64,000 bases of DNA from an uncultured virus (IMG/VR IMGVR_UViG_3300023184_009405) (lineage: Duplodnaviria > Heunggongvirae > Uroviricota > Caudoviricetes), in IMG/VR virus record IMGVR_UViG_3300023184_009405; one strand, 5' to 3'. Position 1 is the first letter of the stretch. Each line of letters begins with the position of its first letter. This document shows positions 7,332 through 52,971 of this stretch, in pieces. The translations under genes and the position numbers were made by a program. Under the pieces are notes generated by a model, which saw only the letters and a list, made by a program, of their open reading frames with translations, was not told the origin of the DNA and ran no database searches.

Positions 7332-7559
7332 ATGCAATGGTTTATGATTATATTTTATTTTTTATTTGCTGTTAATTTATTATCGGCAAATGAATTGCCT
7401 GAAGTTTCTTACAAAGGACAGCCACCTTTGATTATCAAGGAAGCTAAGGCAACTATAATAAAATTTGAAAAATTAATTGAATTAAATGAAAAAAACATAA
7501 TTCCTAAAGGTAAAATCAATTACAAGGAATGTACTTCTGGATTTAGGTGAAAAAATTAA
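7332..7559 (+). CDS. Small secreted protein; candidate selenoprotein ending ...ECTSGFR-U-KN (72 aa if UGA is a stop, 75 aa if read through)
   Basis: Signal-peptide-like N-terminus; TGA 7548-7550 followed by AAA AAT TAA; hairpin 7556-7590 with GTT loop. Confidence 0.6.
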
Positions 7560-7590
7560 TAAAAAAACTTAGTTTAAGTTTTGTTATTAA
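7556..7590 (+). promoter_or_regulatory. SECIS-like hairpin (alternatively a terminator)
   Basis: TTAATAA-A-AAAACTTA GTT TAAGTTTT-G-TTATTAA; loop begins with GU, 21 nt after the UGA. Confidence 0.45.
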
Positions 7591-7642
7591 AATGTTCAAA
7601 GATATAATTAAAGTAGAGATTTTTTAATTATGGAGAACTAAA

Positions 7643-8389
7643 GTGTTTAAAAATTTATCTTATGCAGTAATATTTGTTTGTTTAATTTCTTTTTCTTTGA
7701 GTGCAGCTGAGCCTCAAATTTTTCAGCTTTCAAAAGATGCTCCAGTAGTTCCAACAAACAATAAAGCAAATAAAGTAGATGGCTTAGAAATTCCCGCAGA
7801 TCTAGAAGTTACTCCAGATGAAGGATTTGTTGCCTTGCAAGCAATTACAAAAGGCACAGTAAAGTGGCTTGTAATAAGTCAGTCTAAAGTAAAGTTTCTT
7901 ACAAATGATTCTTCGAATACAATAATTATTTCAGTTCCTCAAAGTGGTCAAATTAATGTATTTGCAGTTGCTTTAGCTGAAAACAAGCTTACTGATTTTG
8001 CCAAAACAACTATAACTATTAAGGGAATCAATCCAGATCCTAAGCCAAATCCAGATCCCAAACCAAATCCAGATCCCAAACCAAGTGGATTGCCTTTACA
8101 TGTTACTTTTGTATTCGATGTAAATGAAAACACACCAGATATTGCAGCTGTTTTAAATAGTCAAGATTTAAGAAAAATTGTTTCTGAAAATAAGAGTTTT
8201 TTAAGAGTATATGATGTTAACAGCGATGTAGTTAAGAATAAGAAGCTTGATACATTATTACCAAAAGTTGGTGGTAGTAATATGATGGTTCTTCAAGAAG
8301 CAGATGGAACATTATTATATGCTTCTCCAATACCAAAGAATGATAAAGAAGCTATTGATATTGTAAAAAAATATTTACCAAAGAATTAA
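7643..8389 (+). CDS. Secreted protein with PDPKPN linker and C-terminal thioredoxin-like (Cys-less) domain
   Basis: GTG start with GGAG RBS, signal peptide, (NPDPKP)x3 near 8030-8083; fold call is by eye. Confidence 0.7.
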   Translation: MFKNLSYAVIFVCLISFSLSAAEPQIFQLSKDAPVVPTNNKANKVDGLEIPADLEVTPDEGFVALQAITKGTVKWLVISQSKVKFLTNDSSNTIIISVPQSGQINVFAVALAENKLTDFAKTTITIKGINPDPKPNPDPKPNPDPKPSGLPLHVTFVFDVNENTPDIAAVLNSQDLRKIVSENKSFLRVYDVNSDVVKNKKLDTLLPKVGGSNMMVLQEADGTLLYASPIPKNDKEAIDIVKKYLPKN

Positions 8390-8408
8390 TTAAATAGGAG
8401 AATGTAAA

Positions 8409-9218
8409 ATGGCTAGTAATTTTCCCGCAGTATTTTTTGATGGAATGTGGCGTGTACTTGCTTATGTTCCATCTGATAACAACCATGCTTTTCCAAAGCT
8501 TTCATCAATGCCTCAAGCTCAATCAAATTTTGAGCTTAGAGAAACAGATTTATCATGGCAAGGCAATAGAATTATGGATCAAGGATCAACATCAAGCTGT
8601 GTTGGTCATGGTGCAGTAGCTGGCATGGAAATTTCATGGAAGCAAGGTGGTAATGAAGCTAGAAAGTTTTCGCCTTTTTTTACTTATGCTTTGATAAATG
8701 GTGGCAGTGATAATGGAGCTATGGTTTATGATGCATTGAAAGTATTGCAGAAATATGGAGCTTGTCCTTTAGAAGTTATGCCAAAAGGCGTTATGTACGA
8801 AAGACAGCTTCCAAAAATTACTTACGAAGATGCAAAAAGATTTAGAATTTCACAGGCTTATCAATGCGATAGTTATGATGAAGTTTGCCAGGCTATTAAT
8901 TTAGGATTTCCTGTTCCGCTTGGTATTTATGTTGGAGATAATTTTTCTGATATTGATTCTGAAGGAATAAGTCCTTTACCTAGAGGTGGTGGTGGCGGTC
9001 ATTGTATTTTGGGATGTGGTTTAAAGAAATCTAATAAATATGGATGGGTAATTAAAATCCAAAATTCATGGGGAAGTAATTTTGGAGTTAATGGATATAG
9101 TTATATTAGGAAAGAACATTTTAAAGGCATGAGTCCAGATGCGTTTGCAATGCAAGCTACATTTGATGATCCAAAAGATAGTAATATACAAGATGATGTG
9201 CCAGTTTTAAAAAATTAA
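8409..9218 (+). CDS. Papain-like (C1A) cysteine peptidase
   Basis: DQGSTSSCVG (oxyanion Gln and catalytic Cys), GGHC (His), QNSWG (Asn). Confidence 0.92.
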   Translation: MASNFPAVFFDGMWRVLAYVPSDNNHAFPKLSSMPQAQSNFELRETDLSWQGNRIMDQGSTSSCVGHGAVAGMEISWKQGGNEARKFSPFFTYALINGGSDNGAMVYDALKVLQKYGACPLEVMPKGVMYERQLPKITYEDAKRFRISQAYQCDSYDEVCQAINLGFPVPLGIYVGDNFSDIDSEGISPLPRGGGGGHCILGCGLKKSNKYGWVIKIQNSWGSNFGVNGYSYIRKEHFKGMSPDAFAMQATFDDPKDSNIQDDVPVLKN

Positions 9219-9234
9219 TTAAGGAGATATAAAA

Positions 9235-9954
9235 ATGATTGAAGAAAATAAAAATTCTATATATTCACAGACTTTTTGGCAAAATGAGCTTTTTAATAGT
9301 AGTGCATTTGAAATGCAATCTAAAATAGAAGTATTATCTGTCGAACAAGTAGAAAGTCTTAAGTTTTCTGCTCAAGATTTAGGAGCTTCTGATACTTGGA
9401 TTGCAGATATATTGCAGACATATGGAGCAAGTGCATTAGCAAGTGCGATTGAATTTTTAAGAAATGGTGCTTCTCCAACATTCATTTGGAGTACACTTCA
9501 ATTATTTGGCCCTGCTTTTCTTGGATTTTTAATTGATTTGTACAATGAATCTAGAAAGAAGGCTATTGTCCAATTAGAGGATGGTAAATTTGAAAATCAA
9601 AAGGTTGGAAGTTTATCAGGTGCTATTATTACTTTGATTCTAGTTAAAGTAATGCCTATTTTAATTCAAAAATATGGGCCACAAATTCTAAATTCATTGC
9701 TTGCTTTGTTCATGAATGTTTTTTCAGAAGAAAGTAAAGCAGAGAATTTTGATGTAGCTTCTGGGAAATATGGGGACCAAGAAAAATTTAAAGGATTTAC
9801 CAGTGAATTAGTTGAATTGGTTGCAACTAAAGTAATGCCAATAATTTTCGAAAAATATGGATCAGATATTTTAAATACTATTAATAATGCATTAATTAAT
9901 GCAGCTAAAGGTGAGAGTTCCAAAGGGGGTGGCAATTTATCTGTTGAACTCTAA
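9235..9954 (+). CDS. Membrane-associated protein with internal helical repeats
   Basis: Repeated (Y/F)G..(I/A/F)L units, e.g. KVMPILIQKYGPQILN and KVMPIIFEKYGSDILN; AAGGAG RBS. Confidence 0.7.
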   Translation: MIEENKNSIYSQTFWQNELFNSSAFEMQSKIEVLSVEQVESLKFSAQDLGASDTWIADILQTYGASALASAIEFLRNGASPTFIWSTLQLFGPAFLGFLIDLYNESRKKAIVQLEDGKFENQKVGSLSGAIITLILVKVMPILIQKYGPQILNSLLALFMNVFSEESKAENFDVASGKYGDQEKFKGFTSELVELVATKVMPIIFEKYGSDILNTINNALINAAKGESSKGGGNLSVEL

Positions 9955-9982
9955 CTTAAAAAATAGTATTTAATTTATTAAA

Positions 9983-10017
9983 AAAAGAGCAAGAAATTAT
10001 ATGTTTCTTGCTCTTTT
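9983..10017. terminator. Intrinsic terminator-like inverted repeat
   Basis: AAAAGAGCAAGAAA-ttatatg-TTTCTTGCTCTTTT. Confidence 0.8.
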
Positions 10018-10060
10018 AGTTTACATAATAATATTTTATGCATAATTAGAAAGGAATAAC

Positions 10061-10507
10061 ATGTTTAGTTTATTGATTAGTTTAATTTTAAATAGTAATA
10101 ATGATCTGCCAGCATTAAAAATTACAACTCCTATGGAATCAAATAAAATAGTTGTTTTAAAGGATGAAAATCCAAGGAAAACTGTACTTATTTATGAAGA
10201 GGATGTTCCAGTTGCAAAAGAAAGTATTTCTTTTGAAATTGTTAGATTTAATCCTTTAAAAAGAACTGTTGGTGCATTAAGAAAGTCTTTATCTGAGGTT
10301 GCAATTTTGCCAAGAAGAGGATCTGTAGTAAAAATTAACAATGGTTTTCCTGTATCAGAAGAAAAAACTGTTACTAAAATTGAAATAAATAAAACTATTG
10401 TTCCTGTAGAACAACAATCTTCTGAAGAACCAAGGTATATGATTCATGAAGACAGGAGATTATTTTCTGGAAGATTAAGAAATAGAATCTTCATAGGCAG
10501 TAGGTAA
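10061..10507 (+). CDS. Hypothetical exported protein with Arg-rich C-terminus
   Basis: MFSLLISLIL N-terminus, RRLFSGRLRNR tail, AAGGA RBS. Confidence 0.7.
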   Translation: MFSLLISLILNSNNDLPALKITTPMESNKIVVLKDENPRKTVLIYEEDVPVAKESISFEIVRFNPLKRTVGALRKSLSEVAILPRRGSVVKINNGFPVSEEKTVTKIEINKTIVPVEQQSSEEPRYMIHEDRRLFSGRLRNRIFIGSR

Positions 10508-10509
10508 TA

Positions 10510-11115
10510 TTGATGTTTAAAAAAAGAATATCAAATATAAACTTGATAATTGTTTGCAATGATTCAAAGCATAATGACGAATTGACTTTTTTAACTTGGT
10601 ATTCTTTCAATAAATGTTTTTCTGGAATTAAATCTTTGATACTTAAGTCTAACAGGAAAAACTCCAATATTAAATACTGGATTAATTCGTTTAAAATTCA
10701 TTGTAAATTTGGAAGCCTAAGTTTAGATGAAATTAAAAAATTTGAATTTTTAGATGATTCTTATTTTGTAATAAAGGCAGGAATTGTTTTTTTGAAGCCT
10801 GAAATTGATTTAGAAAATTCATTTGATTTTTTTGAAAGCAAAGGCATATATTACAATTGCAAAAATTCTTTTTCAGAAACAGAAAATAAATATTTAATTG
10901 GAACGCTAGAAGATGATGTATCTTTTAATTTTATAGATTTAAATCCCTGGATTAAAAAATTAAATGAATTAAAATTAATAGATAGATTGTCTCTGTGTTA
11001 TGGAGAGCCTGAATTTACAAATGGAAAAGGAAATCCAAATGAAATTAATTTTGGTTATTTATTAAAAGATGCTCAAAAAGTTTACAATAATTTCCCAGAG
11101 GTTTTAAATGTCTAA
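10510..11115 (+). CDS. Hypothetical protein
   Basis: 201-aa ORF in operon. Confidence 0.65.
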   Translation: MMFKKRISNINLIIVCNDSKHNDELTFLTWYSFNKCFSGIKSLILKSNRKNSNIKYWINSFKIHCKFGSLSLDEIKKFEFLDDSYFVIKAGIVFLKPEIDLENSFDFFESKGIYYNCKNSFSETENKYLIGTLEDDVSFNFIDLNPWIKKLNELKLIDRLSLCYGEPEFTNGKGNPNEINFGYLLKDAQKVYNNFPEVLNV

Positions 11116-11407: not shown

Positions 11408-11456
11408 TTTTTTAATATAAAATAAATATCGTCTTATATGTTAAATCTAAATATTC

Positions 11457-11783: not shown

Positions 11784-11885
11784 AATACTCCTAGTATCAT
11801 AAGAAATTTTCGTGCTATAATTATAATAGTGGTTTTAATTTAATTTAAACTACAATAAGTAAAATTGATTATTTTTGAGGTAAAA

Positions 11886-15389: not shown

Positions 15390-18215
15390 ATGTCAAATAA
15401 ATTTTTTCACGGATCTTCTATTTTACATGGAAATGGTACAGTTCCTGGCGTTCCACTTCCAGAAGAACTCAAAAAACTTATACCTACAATTTTTAAAGAA
15501 TGTAAAGATTATGGTTTAGATTATTATCCAACTATTGTACAGATGCTTTCTTATGATGAAATTAGTGAAATAGCATCATATGGTGGATTTCCTGTAAGAT
15601 ATCCTCATTGGAAATGGGGCATGGAATACGAGGAATTACAGCGTGGGTATGAATATGGAATGCATCGTATTTTTGAAATGGTTGTAAATTGCGTACATCC
15701 AGATACAAAAATACCTACCAATAAAGGCTCTATTGAAGCTAAACATGTTAAAGAAGGCGATAAAGTATTTTCAAATAATGGTGAAAAATTAGTTGCTAAA
15801 GTAGTAAAGCAAAAAAAGTCAAAAACACTTAAAATTAAACTAAGGGATCAAATCAGAGATTTGGTTTGCACTGAAAACCATAAATGGTTGACTTTAACAG
15901 AAAACGGCAATGAATGGAAGGAAACTAGAGATTTAAAGCCAAACGATCTTTTGATTGGTGGTAATATTTATAGTTATTTTTTAAAAACTCCATGCCAATT
16001 AAATACTAATTTTACAAAAGAAATGTCTTTAGAGCTAGCTGAGTTTCTAGGTGCATTTTATGCATCTAGTCCTGTTTTAAAAAACAATGAACTTTCTATT
16101 AGCTTTGAATCTGGAGATAAATCATTTGATAAACTAACATATATTTTAAAATTTTCTTTCGAATTATTTAATTCTCAAGTAAAAATTTTAATGGAAAACA
16201 ATTCAATTAAAATATTTTTTACTGATTCTAATACTTTAAATTTCTTTAATTTTATTGGATTATCTAATAAAATACCTGATGTAATAAGTTTGTCTTCAAA
16301 TGAATACAAGGCAGCTTTCGCAAGAGGATATTTTAGTTTTTCTGCTAAAATATTCAAAGATAATAAGTATGTTTTACATTTTACGCAAATTGAAAAAAAC
16401 ATAGCTTCAGATCTTCAACTTGTCTTAGCAGAATTTGGAATTTATACTATAGCTAAAGAAGAAGAAAGTAAATTTTTTGAAATTAGTATTTGTGGCAAGA
16501 AAAATTTAATAAGTTTTTTGAAATATATAAATTTGTTTTTTCATAAAAAAGACGCAGATATGATTCTTTTTAATTATGAAGGTTATAGTTATAATATAAA
16601 ATCTGAAATTATACAGAACAAAGTCTTAGAAACTTTAAATAAAATTAATAATGTTGCATTTTTTATCAACAATAGAAGTACAATAGATGATCTTAGAAAA
16701 GCTCCTCAGAACTTGAGCTACATAGAAGCTTTTTTGGAAAATAACTTTATTGATTATTATGTAAAAGAGTTCGAAGAAATATTACAATATTTCAGCAATC
16801 CGCTTTTCCAAATAGAATCAATTAATGAAGATGTAGAACAAGAGACAATAGACATTGCGTTATTTGATGAAAATCATGATTTCATGGCAAACGGTATCAT
16901 TAGTCATAATACTAATCCATGTTATATTTACTGCTTAAATAGCAATACGCTTGTTGATAATGTAACTGTTATTGCACATGCATTAGGTCATAATCACTTT
17001 TTTAAAAATAATATTTATTTTTCGCCAACTAGTCAAAATATGATGAATGAATTTGCCAATAATGGCATAAGAATAAAAAAATACATGGCTAGGTATGGCA
17101 AAGAAAAAGTTACTGAATTTATTGATTGTATTTTGAAAATTGATACTTTGATAGACCCAGCTAAAGCTTGGGAAAATAAAACAATTAAAGATCCAATTAT
17201 AAAAGACGAAAAGAAATATATTTATCCAAGTAGAATAAAATTAAAAAATGATAGATTACACTTAGATCCTTGGATTAATTCTAGAGAAAGCATTGAAAAG
17301 GAAAACAAGTTAATTAAAGAACAGGAAGCTAAAGAAGAAATAGGATTATTTCAAGATCCAACAAAAGATATTCTTGGATATCTTAGAGATAACGCAAATC
17401 TAAAGCCATGGCAAAGAGATATTGTATCAATGCTTTATGAAGAAGCATTATATTTTTATCCACAGGCTATGACTAAAACATGCAATGAAGGATGTGCTAG
17501 TTTTATTGATTATCAAATTATGGCAAGAAATGGATTGGTTGGCTTGGGACAAAAGTCTCATGATGATGGAATTATAGAATATGCCAAACATAAAATGTCA
17601 GTTCTTGGAGGTAAGTATTCTATGAATCCTTACAAGCTAGGATTTTATTTACTGCTTGATATTGAAGAAAGATGGAATAAAGGCAAGTTTGGCAAAGAAT
17701 ACGATGAATGTCAGGATGCCAATCAAAAAGAAAAATGGGATAAGAATTTAGGATTAGGCAAAGAAAAAGTATTTGAAATATGGAAATATTACGATGATGT
17801 TAATTTCATTAATGAATTTTTCACTCCTGAGTTTTGTCAAAAGAATGAGTTTTTTGAATGGGAGAAACATCCAAATGGGGAATATGTAATTTCTTCTAAG
17901 GACTCTGTAAAAATAAAAAGAAAATTAATGCAAAAGCATTTAAATAGAGGATTACCAGAAATTAAATTAATTGATCCAAATCATAAAAATAAAGGATATT
18001 ATCTACTTGAGCATACTTGGGATGGAAGAGTTATTTATCAGCCTTATGTTGGAGAGGTTTTATCTGCAATTTTTATTTTAACTGGCAAACCTGTTGTGCT
18101 GACAACAAAAAACAAAAACAACGAAGATATTGTTTATGTAGCTCCAACTAAAAAAGCAGACGATTTGCAAGTTTATAGAAAAGAAGAATATTTTAAAAAA
18201 TGGAACATGTTTTAA
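15390..18215 (+). CDS. spoVR: SpoVR/YcgB family protein containing an intein
   Basis: GFPVRYPHW..G..Y, IFEMVVN|intein|TNPC, AHALGHNHFFKNN, TK..NEG.AS, NPYKLG. Confidence 0.92.
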   Translation: MSNKFFHGSSILHGNGTVPGVPLPEELKKLIPTIFKECKDYGLDYYPTIVQMLSYDEISEIASYGGFPVRYPHWKWGMEYEELQRGYEYGMHRIFEMVVNCVHPDTKIPTNKGSIEAKHVKEGDKVFSNNGEKLVAKVVKQKKSKTLKIKLRDQIRDLVCTENHKWLTLTENGNEWKETRDLKPNDLLIGGNIYSYFLKTPCQLNTNFTKEMSLELAEFLGAFYASSPVLKNNELSISFESGDKSFDKLTYILKFSFELFNSQVKILMENNSIKIFFTDSNTLNFFNFIGLSNKIPDVISLSSNEYKAAFARGYFSFSAKIFKDNKYVLHFTQIEKNIASDLQLVLAEFGIYTIAKEEESKFFEISICGKKNLISFLKYINLFFHKKDADMILFNYEGYSYNIKSEIIQNKVLETLNKINNVAFFINNRSTIDDLRKAPQNLSYIEAFLENNFIDYYVKEFEEILQYFSNPLFQIESINEDVEQETIDIALFDENHDFMANGIISHNTNPCYIYCLNSNTLVDNVTVIAHALGHNHFFKNNIYFSPTSQNMMNEFANNGIRIKKYMARYGKEKVTEFIDCILKIDTLIDPAKAWENKTIKDPIIKDEKKYIYPSRIKLKNDRLHLDPWINSRESIEKENKLIKEQEAKEEIGLFQDPTKDILGYLRDNANLKPWQRDIVSMLYEEALYFYPQAMTKTCNEGCASFIDYQIMARNGLVGLGQKSHDDGIIEYAKHKMSVLGGKYSMNPYKLGFYLLLDIEERWNKGKFGKEYDECQDANQKEKWDKNLGLGKEKVFEIWKYYDDVNFINEFFTPEFCQKNEFFEWEKHPNGEYVISSKDSVKIKRKLMQKHLNRGLPEIKLIDPNHKNKGYYLLEHTWDGRVIYQPYVGEVLSAIFILTGKPVVLTTKNKNNEDIVYVAPTKKADDLQVYRKEEYFKKWNMF
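15690..16910 (+). mobile_element. Intein (407 aa) with a degenerate LAGLIDADG homing endonuclease
   Basis: Block A CVHPDT, block B CTENHKW, terminal ANGIISHN with Thr at +1; removal restores SpoVR ...EMVVN-TNPC... Confidence 0.92.
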
Positions 18216-19191: not shown

Positions 19192-20565
19192 ATGGCTGTT
19201 AAAGTTATTGGATTTGAACATTTGCATTTGCATACTACTACAGGAAGCTTACTTGATGGTTTTGGATTGCCAATTGAATATGCTAATCGCTGGCAACATC
19301 ATGGTCAGTTTTTATGTATAAGTGATCACGGTACATTAAATGCAGTACCGCTTCAAATTAAAGCTTGTGATGAAATAAATGATAGTAAAAAAACAAAGGC
19401 ATTACAGCCAATTTACGCATGTGAACTTTATGTAAATCGCATGCATTTTGAGCCTACTGCAAATGAAAAACAAAGAAGCGTTTTTATGGAAAGGCTATCT
19501 CCAGAAGAATTAAGTGAATTTAAGATTAAAGGCAATCACCTTCTTGCGATAGCAATTAATCAAGAAGGATACAAGAACCTTGTTAGAATGAGTTCTTGGG
19601 GGTTTATGAATGGGTTTTATTCTAAACCAAGAGTCAACTATGAAATATTAATTAAACACAAGGAAGGCATCATATTTACTTCTTGTTGTTATGCAAGCGA
19701 AATAGGCAGAGCATTTGAAAATAAAGGATGTGAAGCTGCTGAAGAAGTATTAGTTAGATATATGGGTATGTTTAAAGGGCAGTTTTATTTAGAGATTATG
19801 CTTTTGGATTTTAAAAAACAAAAACCATATGATATTTTTATTTTGAAAATGAAAGAAAAATATAATCTTCCTTTGATAGTAAGCAACGATGTGCATTATT
19901 GCCTACCAGAAGATTCTCATTATCAAAGATTAATGTTAATGATACAAACTGGCAGAACAGTTCCAGAAATAAAAAAAATGATTGAATCTAAAGATGATTC
20001 TGTAAACGATTTATTTGAATTACAAGATTCAAATCTTTGGATGAAAACCGAAGAAGAATTAAATCAAATGTGGCTTGAAAAATATAGTGATGCTATTCCT
20101 TTGGAAATATTTGAAGAAGCAAAAAAGACAACTGTAGATATTTGTCAGATGGCAAAAGGTGTAGAGTTAGACAGGAGATTGAAGTTTCCGCAATTACCAA
20201 ATGAAGAAGAATTATTAAAAGAAGAAATCAACAAAGGTGTTAAATTTAGAAATATTCCAAGAACAAAAGAATACCTTCTCAGAATACAAGAAGAATATGA
20301 CTTGGTTTGCAGGAAAGGATTTGCTTCTTATTTTTTAATAGTTCAAAAAATGACAAGTGAAGCAAGAAGAGTGGCACCAAAAATACTAGGGTTTGGCGAT
20401 GGGCGGGAAGCTGTTGGTCCTGGCAGAGGTTCGGCTGTGGGATCTTTGGTTTTATATTTAATGGGAGTTACTGATGTTGATCCAATAAAAGAAGACTTGT
20501 TGTTTAGTAGGTTTTTAAGTGATGCCCGTGGTGGCAAACAGTACAAATTAAGATTTTCTGATTAA
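19192..20565 (+). CDS. dnaE: DNA polymerase III alpha, N-terminal half (PHP domain plus start of palm)
   Basis: HLHLHT..SLLDG, ISDHG, NDVHY, GFASYFL, GPGRGSAVGSLV, DP...LLFSRFL, then stop. Confidence 0.92.
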   Translation: MAVKVIGFEHLHLHTTTGSLLDGFGLPIEYANRWQHHGQFLCISDHGTLNAVPLQIKACDEINDSKKTKALQPIYACELYVNRMHFEPTANEKQRSVFMERLSPEELSEFKIKGNHLLAIAINQEGYKNLVRMSSWGFMNGFYSKPRVNYEILIKHKEGIIFTSCCYASEIGRAFENKGCEAAEEVLVRYMGMFKGQFYLEIMLLDFKKQKPYDIFILKMKEKYNLPLIVSNDVHYCLPEDSHYQRLMLMIQTGRTVPEIKKMIESKDDSVNDLFELQDSNLWMKTEEELNQMWLEKYSDAIPLEIFEEAKKTTVDICQMAKGVELDRRLKFPQLPNEEELLKEEINKGVKFRNIPRTKEYLLRIQEEYDLVCRKGFASYFLIVQKMTSEARRVAPKILGFGDGREAVGPGRGSAVGSLVLYLMGVTDVDPIKEDLLFSRFLSDARGGKQYKLRFSD

Positions 20566-21203: not shown

Positions 21204-22000
21204 TAAAATTTACCTCATCCTTTTTTAGACTTCTTCATTTCCATTTCTTCTGGTTGATTCTCTGGGTCTTCGATTGTAGTAATAATATCTTCTACATCAG
21301 TTTCGCCAGTATCAATATTTGTATCTCCTTCGTCTTCTTCACGATTATCCTCTTCTTCACCATTACTGATTTTTTCGAATTCTGGGAATTTCATCATAGC
21401 TTTGCACATTTTACCAAAGCAACCCTTACGCCTTGCTTCATGCATTAAAGCTCTTACGATATGGGGGTTTTTATTCATTACATAAACTAAATATTGAATT
21501 GCTTGGATTGGATCTGGATGGGAATTACCTGCATAGTAAGAAGTAATATGTGGAGCAATTTCATTTTCGCAGCCACAATGTTCATTTACCATTGTATTTA
21601 TAAAATCTTTAGTAGAAAAATCTTTAGTTGCTTCTATAAATGATTCATTATTTAATTTTGTAAAATTTACAATGTTATCTTTATCACCAACATTAGCAAG
21701 ACCATTTTCTAATTCCTTTGCAGAAGGTTGTTTAGCAGGTGCATAATAAGGATTTGGAGATGGTTTTACAGATTTTGGAACATCATAGCCTAAATTTTTA
21801 GAAATGTTTTTTTCTGGAGATTTGGGCTGTGAAGTTGGTATTTTATTCTTGTGTGCCAATGTTTTTTCATAATTATCAGCAGATACCTTTGAAGGATCTT
21901 TGTTGGTTTTTGAAATATCAAGATCAGCAGCTAAATTATCTGGCTTTGATTTAATTTTCTTTTTATTATCGAAATATTCGCTAAATTTTTTGAAGCTCAT
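21203..22000 (-). CDS. Protein with FKKFSE N-terminal motif; candidate selenoprotein ending ...KKSKKG-U-GKF (261 aa if UGA is a stop, 265 aa if read through)
   Basis: GGA TGA GGT AAA TTT TAA followed by the SECIS-like hairpin; TAAATA and AAGGGG upstream; internal CGC and C.....C. Confidence 0.7.
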
Positions 22001-22097: not shown

Positions 22098-24641
22098 ATG
22101 TCAGAACAAGAAGTTTTGAAAAATTTATGCTTTGAAAATCTCAAAGTAAAAGTAAATCAAGATGATTACAAATTATATTCAAAAAGGCTAACCAATGAGC
22201 TTATTCAAATTGAAGTACAAGAAGAAACTAAATATTTTTTAGAATTATATAATATTTGTAAGAAATATGAAAAAAATCAAAATAATCTTATTGTTCCTTG
22301 GCTTTTAAATATTTGCTCTGATTTTAATATTAGTGAGGAAGCCAATTATAAGATGGGTGAATTACCAGATATTGATATAGATTATTTGCCACAAGTAAGA
22401 GATTATTTAAAAAATGAATGGGCTATCAATGAATTTGGCAGAGAATATGTTTGTAATATTGGAAACTATGGAACTTTTGGTCTTAAATCTACTTTCATTG
22501 ACATGGCTAGGGTTCATGGATTGGATAGAGGTGAAATATTAAATATAACTAAACAATTAAGACTTAAAGATGATGAAGGTCATGCCTTGGGATTTGAAAA
22601 AGCTTTAGAATTATATCCTGAATTGAAGATTTATTGTGAAAAATATCCTGATATTGCTTTGGCTGTTCAAAAATTGCTTCATAGAAATCGTTCTATGGGA
22701 AGGCATGCTGGTGGATTAATTATATCTTCAGAAAGGATTGATAATTTTGTTCCTCTTGCAAAAAATGCAAAAGATGAAACTTGTGCTAGTGCATGGGGTG
22801 AGGGATTGCATGGACAAGATTTAAGCCCTGTTGGTCTTATTAAAATGGACATGCTTGTAATTGATGTTTTGAATCAAATAGCATTAGCTTGTAAAATGAT
22901 CAAAGAGAGACATGACATACAAAATATTTCTGCTAATGTTGGAGAATGGGATTGGAGTGATTTAAGTTATTTAAACGATGAAGTATGCTTGAAAGCTGCC
23001 AGCGATGGAGATTTAAAAGGAATATTTCAATTTGATGGTGAAGGCATTAGAAATTTAGCAAGACATGCAAAAATAACTTCTTTTGATGATTTAGCTGCAT
23101 TAAATGCACTTTATAGACCTGGTTGTTTGTTAATGGGTATGGATAAAGCTTTTGCAAATAGAAAAAACAAAAGAGAAGATTATGAAATCCATCCATTACT
23201 TAAGCCAATTCTTGGAAAAACCTACGGAGTAATTTTATATCAGGAACAAGTCATGCAAGTTTTAAATGTTGCAGGAAGTATTCCTTTGCGTGATTGTTAT
23301 CAAGTGTTGAAGGCTATTTCTAAAAAGAAAGGATCAATTTTTGAAAAATATAAAAATATATTTTTAGAAAATGGAAAAATAAATTTAGGCTATAACGATG
23401 AAGAAATTAAAAATCTTTATGATTACCTTTTAAGTTTTTCTGAATACGGCTTCAATAAAAGTCATGCGTATGCTTACACATACATATCTGCACGACAGCT
23501 TTTTTTAAAATGTTACTACCCAATTGAATTTTTCTGTGCTTCTTTAATCACTGAAAAATCTGAATTAAAAGCAAAGGAAATGATAGTTGAAACAAATAAA
23601 AAAGGTATAGAAGTCTTGCCTATTTCTATAAATGCTTCTAATGTTGATTATGCAATTCAAGAAGGTAAAATTACAATTGGTTTTTCAAATATAAAAGGAA
23701 TAGGTATTGAGAAAGCCGAAAGAATTGTTGCGAACAAGCCATATATTGATTTATTTGATTTCTTACAGCGTTATGGTTCAGATGCAAATGTTTTAAAATC
23801 TTTGATTGCCTTGAATGTTTTTGCTGAATTTGAAAAAGATAAAACCAAAGAACAAATTTATATTTATTGGCTTAAATATTGTTACTTAGAGAAAAACATA
23901 AAAGATAAAATCAAAAGAAATCAAGTTTCTTTTGAAAATTTAAAAGAGAAAACAAAAGAGTTTTTACCAAGCAATTATTATGAAAAGATGCCATTTAAAT
24001 CTTCGGCATTTCAAAAATTGATTGCTTACTTTGAGTCTTTGAAAGAGCCTGAAAAATACAAAACTTCTATAAGTGGTCTAAAAAAAATATTAAAAAGTCT
24101 TCAAAGAATAGAAGATTATAAGCCAGAGAGCATCGTCAGAAAAATGGTTGAAGATATTCCAGATAATAAAGTTACCATAGACAAAGAATACATTGATTCT
24201 TTGTCACAAAATAATTATTGCGAAGAAAAATATTATGGTTTCATATGGAAGACAAATATTGAAACATCTCCTGATTTTATTGGTGGTTATACTGTAGAAG
24301 CATACAACCAATTGATTGAAGATGGTTATACTTTTGGAGTTTTAGAATTAGAAATTGAAAAAATAGAAAAAAGAAAAGGTCAAAAGAACAATTATTATCA
24401 AGTAACAGCATCTGATTTTAATTGTGAAAAAATAAAAATAAACATTTGGATGGATGATTATGAATTTTTTAAAGAAGAATTAAAACAAAGTAACTTAATT
24501 AAAGTACAACTTGAACCACCATCTGGTGGATTTCCTACATATTCTTTGAAGAGATTGTCGTGGGAAGAAAAAAGATCGAAGAAAAGGACAAAAAGTTCTG
24601 ATTTTAGAATTGTTTTAATGAGGAAGCAGATAAATGATTGA
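22098..24641 (+). CDS. dnaE: DNA polymerase III alpha, C-terminal half (catalytic palm, thumb, fingers, HhH, OB-like)
   Basis: LPDIDID, GRHAGG, LIKMDML, GIFQF, ALYRPG, YQEQVM, YGFNKSHAYAY, IKGIG. Confidence 0.93.
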   Translation: MSEQEVLKNLCFENLKVKVNQDDYKLYSKRLTNELIQIEVQEETKYFLELYNICKKYEKNQNNLIVPWLLNICSDFNISEEANYKMGELPDIDIDYLPQVRDYLKNEWAINEFGREYVCNIGNYGTFGLKSTFIDMARVHGLDRGEILNITKQLRLKDDEGHALGFEKALELYPELKIYCEKYPDIALAVQKLLHRNRSMGRHAGGLIISSERIDNFVPLAKNAKDETCASAWGEGLHGQDLSPVGLIKMDMLVIDVLNQIALACKMIKERHDIQNISANVGEWDWSDLSYLNDEVCLKAASDGDLKGIFQFDGEGIRNLARHAKITSFDDLAALNALYRPGCLLMGMDKAFANRKNKREDYEIHPLLKPILGKTYGVILYQEQVMQVLNVAGSIPLRDCYQVLKAISKKKGSIFEKYKNIFLENGKINLGYNDEEIKNLYDYLLSFSEYGFNKSHAYAYTYISARQLFLKCYYPIEFFCASLITEKSELKAKEMIVETNKKGIEVLPISINASNVDYAIQEGKITIGFSNIKGIGIEKAERIVANKPYIDLFDFLQRYGSDANVLKSLIALNVFAEFEKDKTKEQIYIYWLKYCYLEKNIKDKIKRNQVSFENLKEKTKEFLPSNYYEKMPFKSSAFQKLIAYFESLKEPEKYKTSISGLKKILKSLQRIEDYKPESIVRKMVEDIPDNKVTIDKEYIDSLSQNNYCEEKYYGFIWKTNIETSPDFIGGYTVEAYNQLIEDGYTFGVLELEIEKIEKRKGQKNNYYQVTASDFNCEKIKINIWMDDYEFFKEELKQSNLIKVQLEPPSGGFPTYSLKRLSWEEKRSKKRTKSSDFRIVLMRKQIND

Positions 24642-27652: not shown

Positions 27653-27988
27653 ATGAGAAGAAAATATAATGTCAGAGTTGAAGTTAAAGGTTATCATTAC
27701 AATTCTTCAAGCACGACAACAGAAAAACAATTTAAAATTTTAATGTCAGAATTTCGCAAAGCTTGTCATGCTTCTGGTATTATTAAAGAAATGAAGAAGC
27801 GTGAATTTTATGAATCTCCAAGCGAAAAGAAAAGAAGACTTAAAAAAGAACAAGAATTAAATTTGTTTAAACAAAAAATGAAGGAAAGTTTTGTTTCTAG
27901 TGGCAATGGTTCTAATATAAGTGGATCTAATTTCAGTGGACCTAATAATAGCGGTAACAGTTTTAATAAAAAACCAAAAGGCAAGTAA
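27653..27988 (+). CDS. rpsU: Ribosomal protein bS21 with Asn/Gly/Ser-rich C-terminal extension
   Basis: FRKAC..SGIIKEMKKREFYESPSEKKRR. Confidence 0.88.
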   Translation: MRRKYNVRVEVKGYHYNSSSTTTEKQFKILMSEFRKACHASGIIKEMKKREFYESPSEKKRRLKKEQELNLFKQKMKESFVSSGNGSNISGSNFSGPNNSGNSFNKKPKGK

Positions 27989-27990: not shown

Positions 27991-28257
27991 ATGCGACCTA
28001 TTAAAAAAGAAAAGAATTTTTGGGTTTCTCTTGATAATGAAGATTACGAAAAGCTAAATATTTTGGCTGAATCTAAAAATATTCCATTAAAAGAATTTGC
28101 TGGAAGCATTTTAAAGAAAAATTTAATTTGCGACAAAGAAATTGCTGTAATTTTAAAAATACCAAAGGAAAAAATTAGTTCCACGGAGAGCTTGCAAGAA
28201 TGGATGAGTCAGCAAACAAAAGTATTAATTGGTTTATTAAGCAAAAAAAAGAACTAG
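27991..28257 (+). CDS. Small hypothetical protein (possible ribbon-helix-helix)
   Basis: VSLDNEDYEKLNILA...PLKEFA..IL. Confidence 0.55.
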   Translation: MRPIKKEKNFWVSLDNEDYEKLNILAESKNIPLKEFAGSILKKNLICDKEIAVILKIPKEKISSTESLQEWMSQQTKVLIGLLSKKKN

Positions 28258-28742
28258 AAGTAGTTTCTGCTTTAAATATCCCAATTAAAGAAGATGTTTT
28301 ATATGCTAAAGATCAGAATCTTATAGAGATAGCCAAAATTTCTTTGTTAATGCAAAATATTTGCTTGAAAGAAAATGGAGTTGGTTTATCTGCTGTGCAA
28401 CTTGGAATACCTTATAAGATTTTTATTGCTAAAAATTATGATATATCAAATGAATTTTATACTTTTGTAGATTGTCAATATGAAGGCATTGGCAATAAAA
28501 ATACATCTATTGAAGGATGTTTAAGTTTAAAAACCAAATCAAATCAGATTAAAAGATATAAACTTGAGAGATTTCCATCAGTTGTATTAAAAGGTCTATA
28601 TTTTAGCTTTGAAAATAACATGAATTTAATTCCTTTTGAAAAACAATATGATGGCTTTTTCTCAAGCATTCTTCAGCATGAAATAGATCATCAAAATGGC
28701 ATTTTGATTTCTGATATTGGAAAAGAAATGGATTTATATTAA
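28200..28742 (+). CDS. def: Peptide deformylase
   Basis: GVGLSAVQLG, EGCLS and QHEIDH motifs; exact start uncertain. Confidence 0.92.
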   Translation: MDESANKSINWFIKQKKELEVVSALNIPIKEDVLYAKDQNLIEIAKISLLMQNICLKENGVGLSAVQLGIPYKIFIAKNYDISNEFYTFVDCQYEGIGNKNTSIEGCLSLKTKSNQIKRYKLERFPSVVLKGLYFSFENNMNLIPFEKQYDGFFSSILQHEIDHQNGILISDIGKEMDLY

Positions 28743-29002
28743 TGCCATTATCTTTAAAGCAAATTGAATATATTTGTTTGCATGAAAATACCGATGGTAA
28801 AAAATGCAGATATTTGGCAAGAGATTCTAAAAAATCTAATAATTGGATTTGCTTAAAAAAAACAAATAAAAGACTGCTTATAGATAGAGAAGTTAATGAT
28901 TATAAATTAACAATGAAAAATTATATGACAGAAGAAATGCCTCCACTTGGAGATAACTGCGAAGGTTTTACAATAATGAAGCATTTAACTCAAGGCATTT
29001 GA
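28742..29002 (+). CDS. Cys-containing hypothetical protein
   Basis: 86-aa ORF, TAATG coupling. Confidence 0.65.
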   Translation: MPLSLKQIEYICLHENTDGKKCRYLARDSKKSNNWICLKKTNKRLLIDREVNDYKLTMKNYMTEEMPPLGDNCEGFTIMKHLTQGI

Positions 29003-30955: not shown

Positions 30956-31483
30956 ATGTTTAATAAAAATTTCAAGCATCGTACCAACTATAATATTAAA
31001 TCTTCATCGGTAAGGGTATTTAAAGAGCAACAATCTTTAGGAATTTTGCCTATTGATCAAGCCATAAAAATAGCTTTTGATGAAAATTTAACGCTTGTAG
31101 AATTAGTTCCAAATGCTAAGCCTCCTGTTTGTCATATTATGGATTATGGCAAATATTTATATGAAGAGAAAATTAAAGAAAAAGAAAAAGCAAGGAAACA
31201 AAGAGAGTCTGTTACTTTGATTAAGGACATTAGGCTATCTCCTGTGATTAGTGAGCATGATATAGAAACAAAATTAAATAATGCTATTGTATTTTTAGAA
31301 GATCATAAAAAAGTTCAATTTAATATGCAGTTTAAAAGTAGGCAAATTTACACGGGTAAAGAAGATGGCCTGAAAATTATGCAACGGATTATTGATGGGT
31401 GTGGCATTCGTGGTAATGTTGAGTATGGTCCAAAGTTCGAAGGAAATAAATTAATTTGTAGAATCACACCAAAACAGCTATAA
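30956..31483 (+). CDS. infC: Translation initiation factor IF-3
   Basis: N..I....VR, LVELVPNAKPPVCHIMDYGKYLYE, I.EHD..TK; ATG start. Confidence 0.93.
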   Translation: MFNKNFKHRTNYNIKSSSVRVFKEQQSLGILPIDQAIKIAFDENLTLVELVPNAKPPVCHIMDYGKYLYEEKIKEKEKARKQRESVTLIKDIRLSPVISEHDIETKLNNAIVFLEDHKKVQFNMQFKSRQIYTGKEDGLKIMQRIIDGCGIRGNVEYGPKFEGNKLICRITPKQL

Positions 31484-46705: not shown

Positions 46706-46986
46706 TTATAATATGTCCATATTGTAGCGTTGATTTAAATAGACCACTTAATGATGGAATATCTTATTGTTCTAATTGCAATCATGAAATTACTGCAAAT
46801 ATCAAAACAAAGATTTTATCATTATTTAAATATATTAAAAAATCTAATAATTTAAATATTGATAAAATTAAATTTGAAACTAGAAGTGAAATAGATGAAA
46901 TACTATTTGCTTATTCTTTTGCCATTGATCATAATTATTCTAATGATGAATTTTCAAAGATGCTTAATAAATTCTTTGATAACTAA
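46702..46986 (+). CDS. Zinc-ribbon protein
   Basis: CPYC...CSNC. Confidence 0.65.
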   Translation: MIIICPYCSVDLNRPLNDGISYCSNCNHEITANIKTKILSLFKYIKKSNNLNIDKIKFETRSEIDEILFAYSFAIDHNYSNDEFSKMLNKFFDN

Positions 46987-47150
46987 TTTCCAAGCGTTAA
47001 TTCTTCTCTAAGAATAGTAAATTCAGTACCAGCAGAAATTCCAATTTTTACTTTCTTATTCTCAATTTTAATAATCGTTATTTTAATTTCTTTTTGATCT
47101 GGAGTATTGATGATAATTGATTCTTCGGATTTTCTTGATAAAACTAGCAT
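46983..47150 (-). CDS. csrA: CsrA/RsmA translational regulator
   Basis: MLVLSRK..ESI.I...VKIGI.A....ILREEL; start at ATG 47150 after AGAGGA. Confidence 0.92.
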   Translation of the reverse strand: MLVLSRKSEESIIINTPDQKEIKITIIKIENKKVKIGISAGTEFTILREELTLGN

Positions 47151-47361
47151 AATTTTAATCCTCTTGATTAGTTTTACTATTACAATTATTTTTACTATTA
47201 CAATTATTATTGTAACCTTGATATAAGTATTTAACAAGAATAATTTTAACATAAATTCATATATTTTCTTTCATAAAAAGTTGCCTTTTATTTTTAGAAA
47301 TCTATATTAATACGGTATCAGTCAAAGCTGAATTTCAATAAACTTTTTTTGAGGTGTAATC

Positions 47362-48280: not shown

Positions 48281-48315
48281 AAACCTCGCTTCTTAAAAAG
48301 GAGCGAGGTTTTTTT
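48281..48315 (+). terminator. Intrinsic terminator
   Basis: AAACCTCGCTTC...GGAGCGAGGTTTTTTT. Confidence 0.85.
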
Positions 48316-48384
48316 GTTGATATATTGAAACACTTGTGCTATAAAGATGTAATAGAAAGATACTTTTGAATAATTGAGGTAAAA

Positions 48385-49665: not shown

Positions 49666-49684
49666 ACAAATGGGTAAATAATTA

Positions 49685-50212
49685 ATGATAGAAAATATTA
49701 TTTATGTGGATTATATTAAAGACACTAAGGAATTATCTTCTATAGATTTTAATAAGTTTGAAAATAAGAAATTTTATTTATTTATTGATGATAAAATTAA
49801 TATTAATTTTAAGAATGTAAATTTATTAGTATTGAATAATTATAATAATTTTCCAAAAGAATTATCGTGTTTAATGCAGATTTTAGATATTGTAAACAAA
49901 GATTATTATTATTATTTGAATTTTGAACCAATTAACAATATTGATTTATATGTTAATATTGATTCAATAGATGATGATTTTAAATTTTATGGCAATGAAA
50001 TCAGTGATATTTCTATTTGTTTAGCAAATTACAGAGATCAAGTCATGTTTTCTTCTAAAAACAACTATTTAAAACATGGATTCCCACTCTTAATTAAAGG
50101 GGATAAATTAAAATTTATCTTACAATTCATTAAAATATTCTTAGATCTTAATATTTTTAACTATAATATTGAAGGAATTTTCTCAATACTTAAAAATTTA
50201 AAATATGTATAA
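49685..50212 (+). CDS. Hypothetical protein
   Basis: 175-aa ORF; TAAATA upstream. Confidence 0.55.
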   Translation: MIENIIYVDYIKDTKELSSIDFNKFENKKFYLFIDDKININFKNVNLLVLNNYNNFPKELSCLMQILDIVNKDYYYYLNFEPINNIDLYVNIDSIDDDFKFYGNEISDISICLANYRDQVMFSSKNNYLKHGFPLLIKGDKLKFILQFIKIFLDLNIFNYNIEGIFSILKNLKYV

Positions 50213-50534
50213 TTTTATTTATTTCTTATTATTTTTGGCAATTTTTTCTTCAGCAATAATATTATTTTTTTTAATAAAAAAAGATCAAGAAAAAAAATTA
50301 AAAGAATATTTTTTTAAAAAAAAGACAATGTCTGATGACAGTCTTGAATTAATATCTACCTACGAAATTATAAAAGAACTTAAAAAGAGAGAAAATCCAC
50401 CGCTATTTATAGCTTGGATAGATAAAGATGATTATAATAAAATAAATTATTTTATATTCAAGAAAAACATTGAAAAGAAAATAAGTTTATTAATATTAAA
50501 TAAAATGATAAGAGATATAGAATATTTTAGTTGA
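50205..50534 (+). CDS. Membrane-anchored hypothetical protein
   Basis: N-terminal transmembrane helix. Confidence 0.6.
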   Translation: MYNFIYFLLFLAIFSSAIILFFLIKKDQEKKLKEYFFKKKTMSDDSLELISTYEIIKELKKRENPPLFIAWIDKDDYNKINYFIFKKNIEKKISLLILNKMIRDIEYFS

Positions 50535-50599
50535 CATTATTAAAAAACCATATTATAAATTATACTTAGTGATATTAATTACAAGAGGATTTAATAATA

Positions 50600-51541
50600 A
50601 TGTCTGAAGATTTAATGTTTAACGATGAATTAATTCAAAGTATATTAAGTGATAAATTTAAAGTTTGGGCTGTAGATGAATTTAAATCAAGTAAATTCGA
50701 AAAAATAATATTTGCACAATTACCAGATTCAGATGAGTTTAAGAAAAATAAAAAAGCCATAAAAGAAAGTAGCTTGAAAAATGTAATTCCAGAATTAAAA
50801 CATTTTTATGAATTTCCTCTTTTAAATAAAAATCAAGAATTTCATCTGTTTAGACAAATGAATTTTTTTAAAAATAAATGTAAAAAGTTTGCAAAGAAAT
50901 ATATTAAAAATAATTCTAATTTAAAAAAAGAAGAATTAATTAGTTTATATAAAAAATATTTAGAAGTTAGAGAATTTATTATTAAATGTAATTTAAGATT
51001 ATCTTATCAAATGTTTAAACATCGTAAAGATTTTTATGGACATAATACAAATGATCTATTGAGTGATTGTTTTATTAATATTTTAAAAGCAGTTGATGGT
51101 TTTGATTACACCAGAGGATTTAAATTTTCTACTTATTGTACTTGGTGTCTGCTTAATAATTCTATTCGAGATCAAAATTCTAATAAAAAATTTGAATCTT
51201 TAATTTCAACTAACTTAGAAGAAAATAATTATGATTCAAAACTTGATTTAAAAGATCAAGAAATAATTGATAGATTTGATAAAAATGAAAGCGTTCAACA
51301 TGATTGGAATAAAATAAAAGATATTTTTGCAAGTCAGAATAACGAAAGAAGCTTTTATATTTTGACACAGATATTTGGAATAGGATGTAATAAGAAAACT
51401 CTTAAAGAATTAAGCGAAGAATTAAAATTAACCAAAGAAAGAGTGCGACAAATAAAGGAAAAAACGATTCAGAATTTAAAAGATTTAGTTAAAAATGGAG
51501 ATTTAAAATTAATTTTTGAAAGTGATTATGATAAAGAATAA
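50600..51541 (+). CDS. Sigma70-family RNA polymerase sigma factor
   Basis: PLL...QE.HLFRQMN, NLRL, AVDGFDYTRGFKFSTY (region 2), TLKEL...L.LTKERVRQI (region 4). Confidence 0.92.
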   Translation: MSEDLMFNDELIQSILSDKFKVWAVDEFKSSKFEKIIFAQLPDSDEFKKNKKAIKESSLKNVIPELKHFYEFPLLNKNQEFHLFRQMNFFKNKCKKFAKKYIKNNSNLKKEELISLYKKYLEVREFIIKCNLRLSYQMFKHRKDFYGHNTNDLLSDCFINILKAVDGFDYTRGFKFSTYCTWCLLNNSIRDQNSNKKFESLISTNLEENNYDSKLDLKDQEIIDRFDKNESVQHDWNKIKDIFASQNNERSFYILTQIFGIGCNKKTLKELSEELKLTKERVRQIKEKTIQNLKDLVKNGDLKLIFESDYDKE

Positions 51542-51812
51542 GTATAAATTTTATGTTTTTTCTATAGCTTTTTTTATTTTGCTGCTAATGCTTGCAGCAA
51601 CACCAACTACAGAAAACAGTAATAAATTCATAGCTGGAATGTGTTTGGGATTTATGCTTTCACAAGCAGTTTTTCTTTTATGGACACAAGAAAACAAAGA
51701 AGTAAAAGAAGAAGAAAAAGATAATAATATTAATAAAAATCATCCTTACAACAATGAATATTGGTGGAATTCAGGTAATCCACCAAAGTTTACTGATGGA
51801 GATTCAGATTAA
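51516..51812 (+). CDS. Two-TM membrane protein
   Basis: Two hydrophobic helices; start uncertain. Confidence 0.65.
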   Translation: MKVIMIKNKYKFYVFSIAFFILLLMLAATPTTENSNKFIAGMCLGFMLSQAVFLLWTQENKEVKEEEKDNNINKNHPYNNEYWWNSGNPPKFTDGDSD

Positions 51813-51955
51813 TTTTCAGAACATTTGCAATTTTTGCATTTGCAATTTTCGCAAGTGCAGTTTGCACAATCTTCTTTTTTACAAGATTCACAACCACATT
51901 GACATTCAGTAGATTTTTCTTCAAATTCTAAGAATTTCTTAAAGTTTTCGTACAT
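51809..51955 (-). CDS. Metallothionein-like 48-aa protein (below ORF-track cutoff)
   Basis: MYENFKKFLEFEEKSTECQCGCESCKKEDCANCTCENCKCKNCKCSEN; 11 Cys; AAGGAG RBS. Confidence 0.85.
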   Translation of the reverse strand: MYENFKKFLEFEEKSTECQCGCESCKKEDCANCTCENCKCKNCKCSEN

Positions 51956-52095
51956 GTAACTCCTTATCTGACTAAATAGTTTCTAAATTTATATATGTTT
52001 TTCTTTTAAAATAAAATAATTAGTTGTTTTTTGTTTATAGAATTATATCATAACTTATGATACTTATGATAAGTTTAATTTTTTATGGAGTAAAT

Positions 52096-52971
52096 ATGAA
52101 ATCATTGCGATTTTTATTGTTTGTATTATCATTTATTTTATTAATAAATTCTCAAAAAGCTAAAGCTGGTTGAGGTGACCAGCCAGCACTTGGCCAGTTT
52201 GGTCAAAACAAATTAAATAATCAGCCTAAACCAAATAATCAAAACAGGAATATGCCAAATCAATTTAATTCATCTACAGGAACTATTCATATAAGAAATG
52301 AAAATGTGGTTTTTGTAAGTAAAATTGATGGATCTGAAACACCAGGTAGACTTGATCAAAATGGAAATTTTGTACCATTAAACGCTCCTAAAGGACAAGC
52401 AAACAATTCTAATAATTTTGGATTATCAAATAATGATTTAATGTATACAAAAATACAATACAAACAATTATGTAATTGTGATTGCGAAGATATTATTCTA
52501 GCTTTGGATACAAAAGACCCAAGAATAGTAGCAGCAGCTTGTCTTGCTGCTGGTGAATATGATCTTGATGTCAACGAAAGACTAGTTGATTTATTGGGAG
52601 GAGAAAGTGATTTTGTATCTCAGTCTGCAAGGAAAGCATTAATGATGAAATCTTTTTATATGTTAAATAAAATTAAAAAAGAAAATGGAGAAAAGAATAT
52701 TTTTACTTTAAAGCCTAATCCTGTTAATTTAGAGAAATTTACTAATAGTAATAACTTAGACATAGGAAGAGACTATGTTGACTTTGGGCCTATGCAAAAT
52801 GATGATAATGTCGCCATTAATACTTCTGTTTTTAGATGGCAAGCTTGGATTAAAAAAAATGAAAGTAAGTTGTCTGGCATGAAAAATAAAAAAGAAAAAG
52901 TAAGCTTGGAAAAAGAAGAAAAAGTTACTGAATATAAAAAAGAAGATACAAAAGTTCATTCTGTAAAATAA
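52096..52971 (+). CDS. Secreted HEAT-repeat-like protein with in-frame UGA at codon 26 (candidate selenoprotein, 291 aa)
   Basis: GGAG RBS, then MKSLRFLLFVLSFILLINSQKAKA-G-UGA-GDQPALGQFGQ..., in frame with track ORF 52252; C-terminal L.DLL..E...V..SARKAL...DFGP...W..W. Confidence 0.75.
52182..52203 (+). promoter_or_regulatory. Bacterial SECIS-like hairpin
   Basis: GCCAG[C]ACU-UGGCC-AGUUUGGU; bulge at position 17, G22/G23 in loop (U of UGA = 1). Confidence 0.6.

Follow-up and report, generated by a model that had tools for sequence, protein, structure and literature searches.

The DNA analysed here (the window) is a stretch of 64,000 nucleotides from the IMG/VR record IMGVR_UViG_3300023184_009405, an uncultured freshwater phage that is densely coded and has a GC content of about 27%. 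The stretch is present in lake and freshwater metagenome runs (20 rows, 13 studies), with no RNA run listed among them. A gene on its plus strand, at 52096-52971, carries an in-frame UGA as codon 26, and a small hairpin follows this codon within the coding sequence. How the UGA is read, and what the hairpin has to do with it, is the subject of this work, which draws on the following features:

52096..52971, plus strand: gene for a secreted HEAT-like repeat protein, 291 codons, with an in-frame TGA as codon 26 and GGAG 5 nt before the ATG
52096..52170, plus strand: part coding for the signal peptide, MKSLRFLLFVLSFILLINSQKAKAG; cleavage is likely after A-K-A, by inspection, and the part is conserved in six full-length homologs
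52171..52173, plus strand: conserved in-frame UGA, the recoding site; TGA in nine of nine loci
52165..52187, plus strand: hairpin H1, GCUGG...CCAGC, which encloses the UGA (52165-52169 pair with 52183-52187); lineage-specific
52190..52206, plus strand: hairpin H2, UUGGCCA-GUU-UGGUCAA, a candidate selenocysteine insertion sequence (SECIS); 52190-52196 pair with 52200-52206, giving 7 bp and a GUU loop

The reading frame is continuous past the TGA and closes in TAA. By inspection, codons 1 to 25 resemble a signal peptide of the Sec type (MKSLRF, a hydrophobic core and KAKA), and residues 2 to 20 form a helix in the structure model. The signal peptide is followed by a short conserved arm, a variable linker rich in Asn, Gln and Pro, a HEAT-like helical domain, and a C-terminal DFGP...W..W..NE motif. 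A search with the read-through protein returned 15 proteins, with homologs covering 100% of the query, and the six full-length ones align across the N terminus with W at the site. This W is an artefact of gene calling with genetic code 4, because the database protein P0004 equals the translation of locus L001 letter for letter, with TGA as W, and the loci themselves carry TGA. Standard annotation truncates the gene and loses the signal peptide, and code-4 callers mistranslate the site as Trp.

We compared nine loci, namely, the window and eight relatives that include the N terminus (L001-L005, L008, L009, and L010; 44-82% protein identity). Codon 26 is TGA in all nine, over a range of 44-100% protein identity with the window included, and also in both contigs that cover the site in run X9; runs X2, X3, and X6 had no coverage there. 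At its two other Trp positions, the gene has TGG in 18/18 cases, and the genes of the window hold 177 TGG codons versus a single in-frame inner TGA; UGA is thus no free synonym of Trp or Gly. The Gly codon beside the site varies among GGT, GGC, and GGG while codon 26 stays TGA. Just past the TGA, codons vary synonymously in frame (GAC/GAT, CCA/CCT, and AAC/AAT), and in four of the nine loci the stretch from the TGA to the conserved domain offers no in-frame ATG, GTG, or TTG, which indicates that the segment after the TGA is translated. The UGA at codon 26 must be read as an amino acid. A previous reading of the window from its sequence alone (the sequence-only reading) had proposed several recoded UGAs, each with a SECIS-like hairpin, and had named a UGA or Cys conserved in homologs and a covarying hairpin as the way to check them. 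Codon 26 is the single recoding site among those proposed: at 52171, all nine loci retain the UGA, and close to it a hairpin with covarying pairs is maintained. None of the homologs examined has Cys at this position.

The second hairpin, H2, is constrained at the RNA level. The 67 nt around 52171 fold with a minimum free energy (MFE) of −21.0 kcal/mol, a value reached by 0.2% of 1,804 coding windows (z = −2.6 versus shuffles), and the core 42 nt around the site have 57% GC versus 27% for the genome. RNAalifold, applied to the nine sequences, yields the two helices H1 and H2. In L008, a pair of H1 is kept through two synonymous changes (U-A to A-U), and H1 is lost in L009/L010. H2 is found in all nine loci, with 96.8% of cells paired, a loop G-U-U that is invariant in 9/9, and a stem of 6 bp in L009/L010. 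It starts 16 nt past the UGA, and in a numbering that begins with the U of UGA its loop G is at position 27; 23 nt separate the UGA from the loop in the window group, and 26 nt do so in L009/L010. Three pairs of H2 differ in L009/L010 and still pair (U-A to A-U, G-C to A-U, and G-U to A-U), two of them altered on both sides. Taken together, H1 and H2 pair in 92.6% of cells with a covariation score matched by 0/500 shuffles, and slid registers score lower. Among the seven closer sequences, third codon positions vary at 0/6 sites in H2 versus 9/16 in the flanks (p = 0.023), and H2 contains CAG and GGC, which are uncommon choices for Gln (18.8%) and Gly (18.3%), respectively. Its core motif occurs once in the window. 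A different fold of the 50 nt starting at the UGA reaches −11.7 kcal/mol in the window (loop GCACU, with the loop starting 12 nt past the UGA); we rejected this candidate, whose inner stem does not persist in L001-L004 or L008. It is probably this nonconserved fold, and not H2, that the sequence-only reading had in mind at 52171.

At other sites in this phage group, TGA genuinely serves as a stop, as decoding by selenocysteine needs. The stop statistics rest on a greedy set of 90 open reading frames (ORFs) of the window, which end in TAA (69), TAG (12), or TGA (9), in line with the previous observation that nearly all genes end in TAA or TAG. TGA is placed at gene ends by overlaps of the ATGA type. 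An astacin-like gene (54091-54945, minus strand) ends in YP-TAA in the window and in YP-TGA, at the same codon, in L001, L009, and L010, so that TGA and TAA interchange as stops in this group. An inner TGA is present in 1 of about 90 window genes, and again solely in the homolog of 52096-52971 in about 45 kb of related flanks. We also considered G001:C1, a 271-kb contig of 36% GC that shares the same neighborhood with the window (72% identity in PrkA and 47% in DnaE) and supplies the sole genome match for the window PrkA. This contig (L016-L029) is binned with contigs of 69-74% GC in a metagenome-assembled genome titled Acidimicrobiaceae and looks like a related huge phage, misbinned, rather than a host. 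G001:C1 uses the standard code: TGA makes up 120 of its 367 stops, its coding density is no higher when TGA is read through, and none of its six tRNAs has a UCA anticodon.

Every TGA stop of the window has a TAA or TAG 1 to 11 codons further on. Such a back-up stop lies within three codons of 6/9 TGA versus 21/81 other stops (p = 0.019), and in intergenic cases alone after 5/5 TGA versus 9/25 others (p = 0.014); G001:C1 shows a weak trend (28/119 after TGA versus 42/247, p = 0.09). The back-up TAA codons remarked on in the sequence-only reading are thus real, but they are general after TGA stops and not peculiar to the C-terminal sites for which they were proposed. They may be the footprint of leaky UGA termination.

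Two neighbors of the gene bear on the kind of residue that codon 26 may encode:

51809..51955, minus strand: divergent neighbor, a 48-aa cysteine-rich, metallothionein-like ORF with about 12 Cys in CxC/CxxC runs; conserved in 8/8 loci
53181..53465, plus strand: downstream neighbor, a small Cys-rich, lipoprotein-like protein with a signal peptide and a lipobox-like FAG/C (cleavage at the slash); conserved in relatives

The downstream protein has two motifs, CRGCGRSG and SCG, as well as a repeat rich in Ala, Pro, and Lys whose length varies. A profile search of 1.84 billion representatives gave 42 matches for the protein of 52096-52971. Two distant homologs, P0061 and P0067, keep the HEAT-like part and the C-terminal DFGP...W..W..NE..L motif, with Met/His/Cys-rich stretches in place of the phage arm, and the terminal part of P0067 is named rhodanese-related by its source. 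In two of the three phage sublineages, a Cys lies five residues past the site. The Cys-rich neighbors and the Met/His/Cys arms suggest a soft-metal or redox ligand at residue 26, and in this context a soft-ligand residue such as selenocysteine would be more sensible than Trp. We also considered a lipobox cysteine at the site and rejected it by inspection: K/S and G/E at positions −3 and −1 fit poorly, and the E at −1 in P0014 is incompatible.

In bacterial selenoprotein genes, of which E. coli fdhF is the prototype, a SECIS within the ORF is read by SelB. The present gene resembles them in having a conserved in-frame UGA followed, 23-26 nt off, by a small hairpin in the coding sequence with G-U in its loop, in a genome that otherwise uses TGA as a stop. 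The bacterial SECIS (bSECIS) model given in PMC13188914, with the loop and stem sizes in the legend of its Fig. 2, calls for an apical loop of 3-9 nt, an upper stem of 4-16 bp, a G at loop position 1 or 2 with G or U usually next to it on the 3′ side, a distance of 16-37 nt separating the UGA and the apical loop, and an MFE of −7.5 kcal/mol or lower. H2 agrees with three of these four rules (loop and stem, loop G-U, and spacing) and departs from the energy rule. We tentatively propose, at somewhat short of an even chance, that the UGA at 52171 is read as selenocysteine by the host SelB through H2. A ribosome reaching the UGA would already have melted H1. H2, 16 nt further on and with G-U at the start of its loop, would be bound by host SelB carrying Sec-tRNA(Sec), and SelB would deliver selenocysteine to the A site, with all of the machinery borrowed from the host. 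Once the signal peptide is cleaved off, selenocysteine would stand second in the mature protein, within a flexible arm. Unlike the conservation of the UGA, its readthrough, and the constraint on H2, which are observed, we infer the identity of the residue, the involvement of SelB, and a metal-related function of the arm. We found no phage selenoprotein in the titles and abstracts of the papers that our literature searches listed, and the main text of PMC13188914, a 2026 review, contains neither “phage” nor “virus.”

Several results weigh against selenocysteine. H2 alone has −6.0 kcal/mol, and −3.0 to −3.9 in L009, short of the −7.5 limit, and a scan with all four bSECIS rules matches 0/9 loci at codon 26. 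The covariation rests on just two or three lineages. Rfam has no family at its gathering score in the window, and its matches around the site are at chance level. Cys homologs exist for nearly all selenoproteins according to PMC13188914, whereas Cys at the site occurs in 0 of 15 close matches and in 0 of the 10 sequences examined of the 42 profile matches; the family is small. P0052 (E = 1e-62), closest among the homologs that do not carry the motif, does have a signal peptide but no arm at all. The predicted fold is HEAT-like rather than a redox fold. The protein has a subthreshold HEAT_2 match and no other family in Pfam or PHROGs, the model is a helical repeat of poor quality (pLDDT 59), and Foldseek gives no match at E ≤ 0.001 and weak rows to the HEAT-like alphaRep. 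Look-alikes in the ESM Atlas are HEAT proteins, commonest in Planctomycetota, which is only a lead for the host. No SelA, SelB, SelD, or tRNA-Sec is present in the window, as noted before, or in 11 related loci. The clustering of back-up stops fits better with a UGA that is generally leaky or suppressed than with SECIS-specific decoding. In sum, unlike known bacterial selenoprotein genes, this one is phage-borne, its hairpin is weaker than the energy limit, no Cys homolog was found, and the residue lies in a disordered arm by the signal peptide cleavage site of a HEAT-like protein rather than in a redox motif.

A serious competitor, to which we give a chance only slightly smaller than that of selenocysteine, is that a standard tRNA reads the UGA. 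This could be near-cognate tRNA-Trp in a host in which UGA is leaky as a stop, or a suppressor tRNA(UCA) with its gene in another part of the phage genome, and either way the codon would gate expression. Secreted protein would then be made only at a low level, or only once suppression is on late in infection, and a closed gate so close to the 5′ end would yield nothing but a signal peptide, which is harmless. A precedent is the Q-beta coat gene, in which programmed, low-frequency UGA readthrough by tRNA-Trp produces protein A1, and the short and long products are both functional. Here, too, a phage UGA is read to extend a protein, but the short product would be a bare signal peptide. The enrichment of back-up TAA/TAG after TGA is expected with occasional UGA readthrough, and the lack of both a Cys homolog and a redox fold is also on the side of a standard tRNA. 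TGA-recoded phages, which read TGA as Trp and have suppressor tRNAs, are similar in low GC, rarity of TGA as a stop, in-frame TGA, a possible gate, and back-up stops. The path to recoding described in bioRxiv 10.1101/2021.08.26.457843 leads from low GC and few TGA stops to a stop codon that gates late or lytic genes; low GC with few TGA stops (9/90) is the starting state for it, and the window is without recognizable structural or lysis genes, so that heavy late-gene recoding elsewhere in the genome is possible. On the other hand, the same preprint reports in-frame TGA in 26-71% of the genes of recoded phages, mainly late ones, versus a single gene here, with one codon fixed across diverged relatives, a conserved hairpin downstream, and other Trp codons that are never TGA (0/18). 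Neither the window, which is part of a longer contig and probably of a much larger genome, nor the 11 related loci contain a tRNA, G001:C1 lacks a UCA anticodon and uses TGA as a common stop, and TGA and TAA interchange as stops among relatives. A standard-tRNA gate would also not predict H2, its frozen synonymous sites, or a G-U loop at SECIS distance.

It is far less probable that TGA is always a sense codon in the phage or its host, as Trp (table 4) or Gly (table 25), with the TGA “stops” merely preceding the true ones. This would account for the W that database callers gave at the site in seven homologs and for the TAA/TAG that follows every TGA stop, and the DNA is of the low-GC freshwater kind. 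It is contradicted by the 177 TGG codons versus one inner TGA, by the YP-TAA/YP-TGA exchange at the end of the astacin-like gene, and by the ATGA-type overlaps. The Gly codon beside the site changes while codon 26 is never GGN or TGG, and phages with code 25 have in-frame TGA in about 90% of genes according to bioRxiv 10.1101/2021.08.26.457843.

We consider it very improbable that the TGA is a real stop, which would make the gene either a pseudogene or a 25-codon leader and a separate gene reached by restart, short hop, or frameshift. Gene callers do use an ATG at 52252 in the window (P0003, 239 aa), GAGGUGA at the UGA resembles a Shine-Dalgarno sequence, and the GGU on both sides of the UGA recalls short translational hops. 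Bypassing of a stop is known from T4 gene 60 and from engineered GGU-stop-GGU sequences, and the UGA of the window likewise lies between identical GGU codons and inside H1. However, the same TGA is present in 9/9 loci in a frame that is otherwise intact and purified, four of the nine have no start codon ahead of the domain, and the part beyond the TGA lacks a separate signal peptide. The flanking codons are GGU/GGU in 5/9 loci, GGC/GGU in L004, GGG/GGU in L008, and GGC/GCU in L009/L010; in P0014, the residue ahead of the site is Glu. We therefore rejected a GGU-UGA-GGU hop, for which matching take-off and landing codons are not conserved; these, the Shine-Dalgarno-like sequence, and, in the case of gene 60-type bypassing, H1 are absent in L008, L009/L010, or P0014. 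Reinitiation from GAGGUGA was set aside for its lack of conservation and because the only nearby GUG is out of frame. A +1 frameshift of the prfB type is likewise unnecessary, as the conserved protein continues in frame 0.

The sequence-only reading had listed, besides 52171, three further unconstrained TGAs, all of which we found at their positions:

7548..7550, plus strand: TGA stop of a 72-aa gene at 7332-7550; 6/6 homologs end at the same residue (...GFR), and a promoter-like site lies downstream
21215..21217, minus strand: TGA stop of a 261-aa gene at 21215-22000; 17/17 close homologs stop here, and the hairpin loop coincides with a −35-like hexamer
29000..29002, plus strand: TGA stop of an 86-aa gene at 28742-29002; a TTGACA/TATCAT promoter-like site lies 20 nt downstream

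These three are ordinary stops, the one at 29000 on a basis other than homolog comparison. The 17 close homologs of the 261-aa protein (P0017-P0033) terminate in KKSKK[G/K/N/E] with a variable last residue and no extension; the other 17 matches of that search are distant or partial, do not align to the tail, and were left out of this count. All three TGAs are followed by AT-rich spacers with promoter-like matches (10-11 of 12 positions), and no G+C-rich terminator was found downstream of any of them. The claim that hairpins mark TGA did not hold in the window. Over 50 nt starting at the stop, the MFE averages −4.0 for TGA (n = 9), −3.8 for TAA (n = 69), and −6.4 for TAG (n = 12; Mann-Whitney p = 0.36). 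A hairpin that is SECIS-like in a loose sense (5 bp or more, a loop starting 16-26 nt from the U, and a G in the loop) follows 2/9 TGA versus 7/81 TAA/TAG stops (Fisher p = 0.22), and the strict four-rule scan picks out 0/9 TGA stops, 1/81 TAA/TAG stops, and 11/2,440 TGA trinucleotides, 52171 not among them. A phage selenoproteome of three UGAs, two C-terminal and the one at 52171, each with its own SECIS, is thus hardly credible: hairpins do follow 7548 and 21217, and 21217 shares the context Gly-UGA-GGU with 52171, but hairpins are equally frequent after TAA/TAG, homologs stop at the same residue (6/6 and 17/17), readthrough would add just 2-3 unconserved residues, the shared context changes among relatives at 52171 itself (GCU follows in L009/L010, and Glu comes before the site in P0014), and the H2 motif is present once. 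What stands of that proposal is the conserved UGA and hairpin at 52171.

The wider window contains, by Pfam and PHROGs, the PrkA/DUF444/SpoVR trio, a split DnaE, ClpX, PhoH, a sigma-70 factor, IF3, ribosomal protein S21, peptide deformylase, CsrA, a ParB-like protein, HNH, and several glycosyltransferases; capsid, tail, and lysis genes were not recognized with these databases. Within the phage-borne PrkA-DUF444-SpoVR cluster, the SpoVR-like gene (15390-18215, plus strand) is split by an intein with a LAGLIDADG endonuclease domain. DnaE (DNA polymerase III alpha) is encoded by two plus-strand genes, one for the PHP/N-terminal part (19192-20565) and one for the finger/HhH part (22098-24641), with two minus-strand genes in between, and its nearest GenBank phage is an uncultured 595-kb phage at 39.6% identity. 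The phage-borne translation and regulation genes are those for S21 (27653-27988), IF3 (30956-31483), peptide deformylase (28200-28742), and CsrA (46983-47252). At the edge of the window, an open ORF at 1-2346 (minus strand) terminates in a long TTPEP/TTPPP repeat, which gives rise to spurious long ORFs in other frames at 1-589. Relatives of the 52096-52971 protein were found neither in viral contigs (by alignment, also with the N-terminal 52 residues) nor in genome contigs, GenBank phages (tblastn), or G001.

Whatever the mechanism, some form of recoding takes place in this phage gene, in which an in-frame UGA stays at a fixed position and is accompanied by a conserved hairpin. Our tentative proposal, which we hold to be possible if not quite evenly balanced, is that freshwater, probably very large phages encode a secreted HEAT-repeat selenoprotein with selenocysteine at mature residue 2, inserted by host SelB through a minimal 17-nt SECIS with a GUU loop. 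If so, selenoprotein biology would extend to bacteriophages, hosts with selenocysteine machinery would be implied in cold lakes, and the protein would represent a new selenoprotein family without a Cys counterpart and with an unusually small SECIS. If the UGA is instead a gate opened by readthrough, it would be a single-codon version of the stop codon switches proposed for recoded phages, with the tandem back-up stops as its genomic footprint.

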